From assembly GCF_003334355.1 (NCBI RefSeq), contig NZ_QOWP01000005.1: 64,000 nucleotides of DNA; one strand, given 5' to 3'. Position numbers and translations under genes: made by a program. The stretch comes from Escherichia coli (GTDB lineage: Bacteria; Pseudomonadota; Gammaproteobacteria; Enterobacterales; Enterobacteriaceae). Under the pieces are notes generated by a model that did no database searches, was not told where the DNA came from, and saw only the letters and a program-made list of their open reading frames with translations. Below, one piece after another: positions 25,263-25,719 of this stretch; the first letter of the stretch is position 1; each line of letters begins with the position of its first letter.

Positions 25263-25290
25263 AAAAAACCGCCGAATTTGGCGGTTTTTT
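25263..25290. terminator. bidirectional intrinsic terminator (sseA 3' end; also 3' end of minus-strand sRNA candidate 1)
   Basis: AAAAAACCGCCGAATTTGGCGGTTTTTT: A-run, GC stem, T-run. Confidence 0.8.
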
Positions 25291-25362
25291 ATTGCTAGTC
25301 TGGTTCGCGGCCTTTCCAGCAGGTTGACTTGTGTTACATGAGCAACGCAGGTGCTTCACAGC
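25263..25362 (-). ncRNA. candidate ~100-nt sRNA, copy 1 (TimR-like antitoxin candidate)
   Basis: minus-strand -35 TTGACA / 17-bp spacer / -10 GAGTAT, then about 100 nt ending at the intrinsic terminator; contains GGAAAGGCCGCG complementary to the plus-strand mRNA leader. Confidence 0.35.
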
Positions 25363-25368
25363 AAAACA

Positions 25369-25397
25369 ATACTCACCAGTAACTCTCTTTTTGTCAA
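25369..25397 (-). promoter_or_regulatory. putative sigma70 promoter for sRNA copy 1
   Basis: TTGACA (25392..25397 complement), 17-bp spacer, GAGTAT (25369..25374 complement); the -35 lies inside the conserved palindrome. Confidence 0.35.
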
Positions 25398-25587
25398 GCA
25401 AAAGAGAGTAATTATTGTTTATTTAGCGTATTATCGACACCGGCCCTTTCCGCCGTGTTCGGTAATAAAATAACCTGGCTTATTAGTCCGAATTCAGACA
25501 AATATAAACAAATCCTGCTCAAAATTAAAAATTCTAACCGGTAAAAGATATTACTTAAACATGTAAATTCACTTTCCTTTAAAAAAC

Positions 25588-25616
25588 AAAAAACCGCCAA
25601 AATCAGGCGGTTTTTT
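25588..25616. terminator. bidirectional intrinsic terminator (second copy)
   Basis: AAAAAACCGCCAAAATCAGGCGGTTTTTT. Confidence 0.75.
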
Positions 25617-25684
25617 GTTGCTGGTCCGGTTCGCGGCCTTTCCAGCAGGTTGTATTACCGTAGTAATGCAAGCGCGTCTCAGCG
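25588..25684 (-). ncRNA. candidate ~100-nt sRNA, copy 2 (TimR-like antitoxin candidate), divergent from the ryfA-like transcript
   Basis: minus-strand TTGACA-N17-GAGTAT promoter (25691..25719), terminator at 25588..25616; contains GGAAAGGCCGC. Confidence 0.4.
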
Positions 25685-25690
25685 GAGACA

Positions 25691-25719
25691 ATACTCGCCA
25701 GTAACTCTCTTTTTGTCAA
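25691..25719 (-). promoter_or_regulatory. putative sigma70 promoter for sRNA copy 2
   Basis: TTGACA (25714..25719 complement), 17-bp spacer, GAGTAT (25691..25696 complement). Confidence 0.35.

Follow-up and report, generated by a model that had tools for sequence, protein, structure and literature searches.

The window analysed here is a 64,000-nucleotide stretch of an Escherichia coli genome (assembly GCF_003334355.1, contig NZ_QOWP01000005.1), in which the intergenic region between sseA (stop codon at 25246) and sseB (minus strand, start at 26064) holds two tandem units on the minus strand, each laid out as a small RNA (sRNA) gene of ~100 nt. Copy 2 lies upstream of and divergent from ryfA, the mRNA that encodes TimP, a toxic inner-membrane protein of 41 aa, whose repressor in Salmonella is the divergent sRNA TimR, formerly STnc2070 (PMC7667032). 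Copy 1 adjoins sseA and lies upstream of IS128, whose first ~35 nt correspond to the timP 5′ end. Both units are most probably sRNA genes of the TimR/RyfB family and relics of a tandem module, copy 1 being the cognate of the sole timP and copy 2 a mismatched paralogue. RefSeq annotates the timP coding sequence (CDS) at this locus and no sRNA. The elements of the locus are as follows, with seed types defined further below.

25263..25363, minus strand: copy 1, timR paralogue with a type a seed, ~101 nt; 5′ end predicted, 3′ end at the terminator U-run
25369..25397, minus strand: copy 1 promoter, TTGACA (25397-25392), 17-bp spacer, GAGTAT (25374-25369); exact pattern
25258..25295, both strands: copy 1 terminator, bidirectional, stem GCAATAAAAAACCGCC/GGCGGTTTTTTATTGC; inverted repeat with 19-nt arms, 95% complementary
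25588..25685, minus strand: copy 2, timR paralogue with a type b seed, ~98 nt; ECS011/IS129 of E. coli K-12
25691..25719, minus strand: copy 2 promoter, TTGACA (25719-25714), 17-bp spacer, GAGTAT (25696-25691); exact pattern
25585..25619, both strands: copy 2 terminator, bidirectional, stem AACAAAAAACCGCC/GGCGGTTTTTTGTT; inverted repeat with 14-nt arms, 100% complementary
25422..25630, plus strand: IS128 (Rfam RF00125, 262 bits)
25762..26065, plus strand: ryfA, the timP mRNA and target (Rfam RF00126, 314 bits)
25908-26033, plus strand: timP CDS, 41 aa, translation MKIRCFCIVLIVSGALLTEVNNNRSLSGDNLLVVNNLQSSK; open reading frame intact, TimP by RefSeq name
25825..25843, plus strand: target site in the SL2 loop, which lies in the 5′ untranslated region (5′UTR) of timP, type a, including the ‘variable region’ TGTTT; homologous to the Salmonella TimR-binding site
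25344..25362, minus strand: stretch of copy 1 predicted to pair with timP, 19 contiguous pairs, two of them G-U

The repeat has a period of 322-326 bp, and the two copies are 81% identical over the transcribed part and 89% identical, as mean column identity, over the whole units, with the divergence mostly in the 5′ ~40 nt. An earlier reading of the letters of the window (the original prediction) had described two tandem ~100-nt sRNA genes. The tandem copies stand, but the duplicated unit is larger than described: the repeat also takes in the plus-strand promoter that diverges from each unit, together with the initial ~35 nt of the RNA made from that strand. Its structural claims were all found in place: a TTGACA-N17-GAGTAT promoter and a G+C stem/U-run terminator for each unit, a palindrome around both −35 elements, a terminator of copy 1 shared with convergent sseA, the divergence of copy 2 from ryfA, and variable 5′ ends beside an exactly repeated motif. 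Small open reading frames overlapping both units were dismissed, as their starts lie upstream of the transcription starts.

The pattern TTGACA-N17-GAGTAT matched exactly twice in the window, both times on the minus strand; 100 dinucleotide-preserving shuffles gave no match, and none is expected by chance. The promoters of the two copies are identical save for one spacer base. The Salmonella timR promoter (oligo EHO-1349) has the same geometry (TTGACA, 17 bp, GAGTAT, 5 nt, +1), and the 5′ end of copy 1 was placed by analogy with Salmonella and with copy 2. The minus-strand promoters escaped a generic consensus scan, since GAGTAT fits only three of the six positions of TATAAT; the scan gave a plus-strand TTGTCA-16-TATTGT instead, and the promoter evidence rests on the exact-pattern search and on published RNA ends. 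The plus-strand TTGTCA (25713-25740, and 25391-25418 in the first repeat) overlaps the minus-strand −35 TTGACA with a 1-bp offset, within the palindrome. Homology to the Salmonella start makes TATTAT at 25751-25756 (25429-25434 for IS128) the more likely −10 element of the timP promoter. The palindrome itself is laid out as follows.

25383..25408 (copy 1) and 25705-25730 (copy 2), both strands: palindrome CTCTCTTTTTGTCAAGCAAAAGAGAG (CTCTCTTTT-TGTCAAGC-AAAAGAGAG), centred on the −35 element

This palindrome is absent from the O157-type module and from the same position in Salmonella, and was not seen around the −35 element in other genera; therefore, it is not a family-defining feature. Both terminators are bidirectional because A/T runs flank each of them on both sides. 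The terminator of copy 1 lies 12 nt past the sseA stop codon and is common to the convergent, plus-strand sseA, and that of copy 2 is common to the plus-strand IS128 remnant. On the minus strand, two U-tracts (TTTTTTGTTTTTT; UUUUUUGUUUUUU) follow the copy 2 terminator at 25581-25593.

A covariance model was built from nine non-Escherichia homologues (Salmonella, Citrobacter, Superficieibacter, Yersinia, Rahnella, and Erwinia), among them the TimR characterised experimentally in Salmonella. It matched copy 2 at 25587-25684 of the minus strand (99.2 bits, E 2.7e-20) and copy 1 at 25262-25363 (77.5 bits, E 1.7e-15), with no further convincing match in the window, so that the claim of two paralogous sRNA genes is borne out by a model drawn from other genera. 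The full sequence and promoter of Salmonella TimR were recovered from the Table S2 oligos of PMC7667032, and each copy shows 72-73% identity to it (72% for copy 1). Both units belong to the RNA antitoxins of a type I toxin-antitoxin-like timPR module and do not represent a new class.

The family alignment (17 members from six genera) describes a four-part RNA consisting of a 5′ seed, hairpin 1, hairpin 2, and a terminator hairpin. The seed, ~16-20 nt long, is unpaired in the consensus fold but for a weak 3-bp helix. Pairing in hairpin 1 is kept through GC-to-AU double changes at two positions, and the terminator hairpin likewise shows compensatory changes. Overall, 97% of the paired cells in the alignment can pair, compared with 28-55% when the partners are slid. 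Copy 1 folds in the family layout, with a 5′ region largely unpaired in the consensus, two hairpins, and the terminator (z −2.6), and copy 2 has a fold z of −3.4.

Rfam, searched at gathering and at permissive thresholds, returned no family for the minus-strand units. Sub-threshold matches (rimP leader, AgrB, OhsC, RNAI) were rejected as chance, being terminator-driven. The Rfam IS128 model scored 34 bits on the minus strand against a threshold of 80, and its true match lies on the plus strand with 262 bits; the minus-strand units are therefore outside the IS128 family, which is encoded on the opposite strand.

Expression has been documented for copy 2. The deep-sequencing contig ECS011 of E. 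coli K-12, equated with IS129 (Shinhara et al. 2011, PMC3175480), is identical base for base to 25615-25685 of the window on the minus strand, which places the 5′ end of the copy 2 RNA at 25685, 6 nt past GAGTAT, where the promoter predicts it. In the same study, a strand-specific Northern blot of K-12 RNA with a probe on the copy 2 variable region gave bands of ~95 and ~100 nt, and plus-strand IS128 RNA was undetected. Each unit has its own promoter and an intrinsic terminator that would give an RNA of ~100 nt, and for copy 2 the 5′ end and size agree with these data. The doublet could reflect the two U-tracts behind the copy 2 terminator; alternatively, the upper band could come from cross-hybridising copy 1, to which 24 of the 34 probe positions are identical. 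In the parts of that report available to us, ECS011 is called only ‘cis-antisense to IS128’, with no function and no link to ryfA or timP, and copy 1 is unreported. A legacy K-12 sRNA, C0614, maps to 25359-25445 of the minus strand (MG1655 2651474-2651560, old numbering), over the promoter region of copy 1, and could be an inexact trace, from array data, either of copy 1 or of read-through from copy 2.

These data bear on the view that the locus holds no sRNA genes, only bidirectional terminators and promoter-like remnants of the plus-strand transcripts of sseA, IS128, and ryfA. Such a view would draw on the bidirectionality of the terminators, on the generic scan that left out the minus-strand promoters (GAGTAT again fitting 3/6 of TATAAT), and on the lack of an Rfam family for that strand. 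It is contradicted for copy 2 by the K-12 data, in which the RNA of the minus strand appeared both in the sequencing and on the Northern blot and the plus-strand IS128 RNA went undetected; the original prediction had named a single longer plus-strand transcript, with no minus-strand transcription, as the outcome that would undo it, an outcome not borne out for copy 2. TimR/RyfB homologues have moreover been detected in Salmonella (PMC7667032), Shigella (PMC5333039), uropathogenic E. coli, and avian pathogenic E. coli, and the covariance model matches and compensatory base changes back a structured RNA. We consider the absence of sRNA genes here to be highly improbable.

The mode of action of TimR is known from Salmonella. 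Its 5′ end pairs with the 5′UTR of timP, and mutating either RNA abolishes the rescue from TimP toxicity (PMC7667032, with matching mutant oligos for the two RNAs in its Table S2). In vitro, TimR blocks translation of timP (PMC7667032, PMC11228461, PMC13000454), and its binding destabilises the pseudoknot between stem-loops SL1 and SL3 (sites 1-3), favouring an inactive form in which the Shine-Dalgarno sequence is sequestered in SL4 (PMC13000454, PMC11228461). We infer a corresponding mechanism for the E. coli locus. Each unit would be transcribed on the minus strand from its sigma-70 promoter TTGACA-N17-GAGTAT to the intrinsic terminator, giving an RNA of ~100 nt whose first ~16-20 nt would pair with the SL2 loop in the 5′UTR of the divergent timP (ryfA). 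This pairing would destabilise the SL1-SL3 pseudoknot needed for ribosome loading and leave the Shine-Dalgarno sequence sequestered, and therefore the 41-aa membrane toxin TimP would not be made.

Comparison of seeds with SL2 loops across lineages agrees with the assignment of the 5′ end as the pairing region. Whole-length duplex folding of the sRNAs against ryfA or IS128 had given long spurious duplexes and terminator overlap, and was replaced by these seed-versus-SL2 comparisons. In 10 of 11 lineages, the best duplex of a seed was with its own neighbouring target, with 16-20 contiguous pairs and predicted energies (dG) of −36 to −42 kcal/mol, compared with means of −21 to −30 for other targets. 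Within E. coli, three co-varying types of seed and target were found, which match the ‘variable region’ types that Fris et al. (PMC5333039) describe for ryfA.

Type a: seed GCUGUGAAGCACCUGC; timP target GCAGGUGUUUCACAGC; variable region TGTTT
Type b: seed CGCUGAGACGCGCUUGC; timP target GCAAGCGCGUCUCAGCG; variable region CGCGT
Type c: seed CUGUGGGGUGCCUG; timP target CAGGCACCCCACAG; variable region CACCC

Judged from these sequences, the variable 5′ end is the specificity determinant, the covariation across lineages agreeing with the Salmonella mutagenesis. The original prediction had placed the seed elsewhere, in a stretch that both copies share exactly and that forms part of hairpin 2.

25302..25319 (copy 1) and 25628..25645 (copy 2), minus strand: shared motif CTGGAAAGGCCGCGAACC (CUGGAAAGGCCGCGAACC), the 5′ stem strand and loop of hairpin 2; exact repeat

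Hairpin 2 has a GCUGG/CCAGC stem around a loop with AAAGGCCGC, invariant in 16 of the 17 sequences from the six genera, and this near-invariance shows constraint at the sequence level. It was proposed that the two RNAs are trans-acting paralogues that use the shared GGAAAGGCCGCGAACC as a common seed on common targets. Exposure of the motif in the hairpin 2 loop, together with its conservation, would suit such a role. So would the complementarity of GGAAAGGCC to the timP mRNA 5′ end (GGCC(C)UUUCC in E. coli and Salmonella, GGCCUUUUC in Yersinia and Erwinia), which on reading the sequences allows 7-9 pairs in every genus, and the resemblance of GGCCGC to timP ‘site 2’ (six nt around C57, C58, and G59; GGCCGU by alignment to E. 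coli). However, the 5′ ends co-vary with the target and the shared motif does not. It stays constant where the timP 5′ end varies, and therefore its pairing has no support from covariation; the motif co-varies with no partner. Shigella RyfB1, furthermore, represses RyfA1 and not RyfA2, though the motif is conserved in every paralogue examined. A shared seed is thus improbable, and the notion of generic regulators gives way to that of antitoxin-type repressors of the neighbouring ryfA/timP, published as TimR, RyfB1/RyfB2, and IS129/ECS011.

The invariant loop GGAAAGGCCGC is complementary to the timP 5′ end at 25764-25773 of the plus strand, and resembles ‘site 2’ of the structural switch (PMC13000454). 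A family-wide second contact of the loop with the timP 5′ end or site 1, to which this complementarity points, is improbable; if real, it could account for the way TimR destabilises the pseudoknot. A protein-binding role of the loop is also possible.

Given 5′-end specificity, the seeds and the target at this locus appear crossed. Copy 1, the distal one, carries a type a seed and copy 2, adjacent to timP, a type b seed, and the sole timP target is of type a; therefore, as far as sequence can tell, copy 1 would be the cognate repressor. The predicted duplex of copy 1 with timP 25825-25843 has 17-19 contiguous pairs, two of them G-U, at −36 to −40 kcal/mol, within the cognate range of the ten other lineages; with a shorter target, the 17 contiguous pairs give −35.7. 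For copy 2 and the timP of the window, 11 contiguous pairs, several of them G-U, and 24 pairs in total are predicted at −31 to −33 kcal/mol, a value between those of cognate and other non-cognate pairs, compared with 17 pairs at −42 to −44 for the copy 2 seed on the type b timP of other E. coli. The expressed ECS011 RNA would accordingly be a mismatched paralogue of intermediate complementarity.

The relatives of this locus suggest how the arrangement may have arisen. Single modules carry matched types: a/a in L126, b/b in L002, L127, and Escherichia whittamii L074, and c/c in O157 L003, L025, and L076. E. coli LCP30S3_I5 (L125) has two complete cognate modules in the order Ra-timPa, sseB 3′ fragment, Rb-timPb. 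The window aligns with it at 25250-25456 (L125 1383-1589) and 25456-26070 (L125 1946-2560), and the intervening 356 bp (L125 1590-1945), from about nt 36 of timP-a into the sseB fragment, are missing, with the junction at 25456. IS128 accordingly reads as the opening ~35 nt of another timP, joined at 25456 to an sseB 3′ remnant and running into the copy 2 terminator: a 34-nt stretch has 88% identity to the ryfA 5′ end, and the next 14 nt are identical to 26134-26147. As the window is collinear with L125 apart from the 356 bp, IS128 (RF00125) appears to be the deletion scar of a second timP and not an independent sRNA gene, a reading that fits the non-detection of IS128 RNA in K-12. The timP that survives has a mosaic make-up, of type b over the first ~21 nt and at the 3′ end and of type a in the core (nt ~22-271) that holds the target loop. 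Gene conversion between the tandem copies, preceding the deletion, would fit this pattern. The whole module timR-timP-’sseB would have been duplicated in tandem, and the toxin of the first module then deleted, leaving the IS128 scar.

This arrangement is widespread in E. coli. Out of 5426 complete E. coli genomes, 1516 carry the 901-bp region at ≥99% identity; at the same identity, the copy 1/IS128 junction (a 175-nt stretch) is found in 1613 and the junction of copy 2 with the type a target in 1073, and K-12 derivatives match both junction stretches at 100%. Most other E. coli genomes have a single ~575-bp module, and at most ~180 have two full ryfA copies. The original prediction had suggested comparing E. 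coli, Shigella, and Salmonella to see whether the duplication is lineage-specific. All non-Escherichia loci examined are single-copy and the copy number within E. coli is mixed; thus, among these loci, the duplication is specific to Escherichia/Shigella and polymorphic within E. coli. A contig search with the pattern GCGGTCNNNGCANNGACCGCAC was too degenerate, giving mostly unrelated GC-rich matches, and yielded at least 14 usable Enterobacterales loci; no Salmonella or S. dysenteriae genomic locus was among the matches listed.

Three variant loci were also observed. In Citrobacter amalonaticus (L101, ~8069-8130), the timR seed, as its reverse complement, runs directly into the timP target loop, with the promoters and SL1 missing. 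Seed/target complementarity makes two ~17-nt direct repeats on DNA, and the fusion looks as if a deletion had taken place between them. E. coli 98198 (L004, 703-790) has a third, shorter timR-like unit adjoining sseA, in which the TTGACA-N17-GAGTAT promoter is intact and hairpin 2 and the terminator are conserved; the seed of this unit, GAGUAGACGAGAUACACUUGC, has no matching target in the L004 locus, and behind the unit comes an IS128-like body without the SL1 part. In one E. coli strain (NZ_CP145630.1, 3189597-3191156), an IS200/IS605-family transposase gene lies inside the sseA-timP intergenic region.

Taken at face value, the crossed match makes it quite possible, though short of probable, that timP of the K-12 type is guarded mainly by the distal copy 1, with the adjacent copy 2 weaker or idle. 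The converse would be that only the adjacent copy 2 matters, as in single-module genomes, and that copy 1 is a decaying orphan antitoxin, stranded by the deletion of its toxin, whose match to timP is incidental. Copy 2 is the copy with demonstrated expression, every other lineage examined has its functional pair side by side, the neighbour of copy 1 is the IS128 scar, and copy 2 keeps 11 contiguous and 24 total predicted pairs with the type a target. Decay of copy 1, however, is at odds with its intact promoter, one spacer base off that of copy 2, its intact terminator and family fold, the conservation of the 175-nt stretch over it at ≥99% identity in 1613 of the 5426 genomes, and a seed whose pairing with the timP loop is on a par with that of cognate pairs in other lineages. 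We therefore consider sole action of copy 2 unlikely.

It should be noted that several points weigh against a tandem relic with copy 1 as the cognate antitoxin. Copy 1 is not among the candidates of Shinhara et al. (2011) in the part of the supplement text available to us, we found no direct evidence of its expression in K-12-type strains, and C0614 covers no more than 5 nt of the predicted copy 1 RNA. Repression of TimP by either E. coli copy is extrapolated from Salmonella; deletion of timR in avian pathogenic E. coli had little phenotype, and the same study doubts that TimP is made in E. coli. The duplex of copy 2 with the type a target is still predicted at −31 to −35 kcal/mol, by energies that ignore target structure, kinetics, and chaperones, and copy 2 may repress timP too. 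Conversion followed by deletion is one of several possible histories.

The main value of these results is in annotation. Rfam lacks a TimR family, and what RefSeq annotates is the timP CDS alone; standard annotation therefore misses both sRNA genes in at least 1000 complete E. coli genomes, K-12 among them. Should the crossed pairing be real, the locus would be a natural arrangement of two antitoxins of graded affinity and one toxin, K-12 strains would offer a ready-made test of the seed mismatch that a type I antitoxin tolerates, and the timR deletions published for E. coli may have spared a second antitoxin that is the better match.

The family and its mechanism have been published, as have tandem duplicates in Shigella, and copy 2 was detected in K-12 in 2011. 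In the literature covered, which included few subscription-journal papers and no figures, we found no account of two timR genes in K-12-type strains and no description of IS128 as a deletion scar or of the crossed seed/target arrangement; the better fit of timP to the distal than to the adjacent copy is possibly the one point of novelty.

Among known systems, TimR of Salmonella Typhimurium (Andresen et al. 2020, PMC7667032) resembles both copies in length, promoter geometry, hairpin-2 motif, and kind of terminator, and is likewise divergent from timP with a 5′ end complementary to the SL2 loop. Salmonella has one timR copy, whereas there are two here with different seeds, both of which differ from that of Salmonella TimR and co-vary with their own targets. 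In Shigella dysenteriae, RyfB1 and RyfB2 are ~100-nt RNAs divergent from the tandem genes ryfA1 and ryfA2 (Fris et al. 2017, PMC5333039). RyfB1 lowers the level of RyfA1 RNA and not of RyfA2, and its complementarity overlaps the 5-nt ‘variable region’ (PMC5333039). The same locus is thus duplicated in tandem with paralogue-specific sRNAs, but S. dysenteriae, like E. coli L125, has two full ryfA genes, whereas the first ryfA here is reduced to the IS128 scar and the remaining one, unlike in S. dysenteriae, bears the target type of the non-adjacent sRNA.

More distant parallels are IstR-1/tisB, OhsC/shoB, and OrzO-OrzP/zorO-zorP, which PMC7667032 lists as analogues, and AgrA-AgrB/dinQ. No nucleolytic processing of the timP mRNA is needed, and TimR acts by disrupting a pseudoknot and structural switch, not by blocking a standby site (PMC11228461, PMC13000454). 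The divergent type I antitoxins IstR-1, OhsC, OrzO-OrzP, and AgrA-AgrB share with the present locus a small hydrophobic toxin, short 5′UTR complementarity, and tandem paralogues of differing specificity. They have no sequence homology to TimR, and the weak, below-threshold Rfam matches of copy 1 to AgrB and OhsC are probably terminator-driven. AgrA and AgrB are two tandem sRNAs beside one toxin, of which only one is active.

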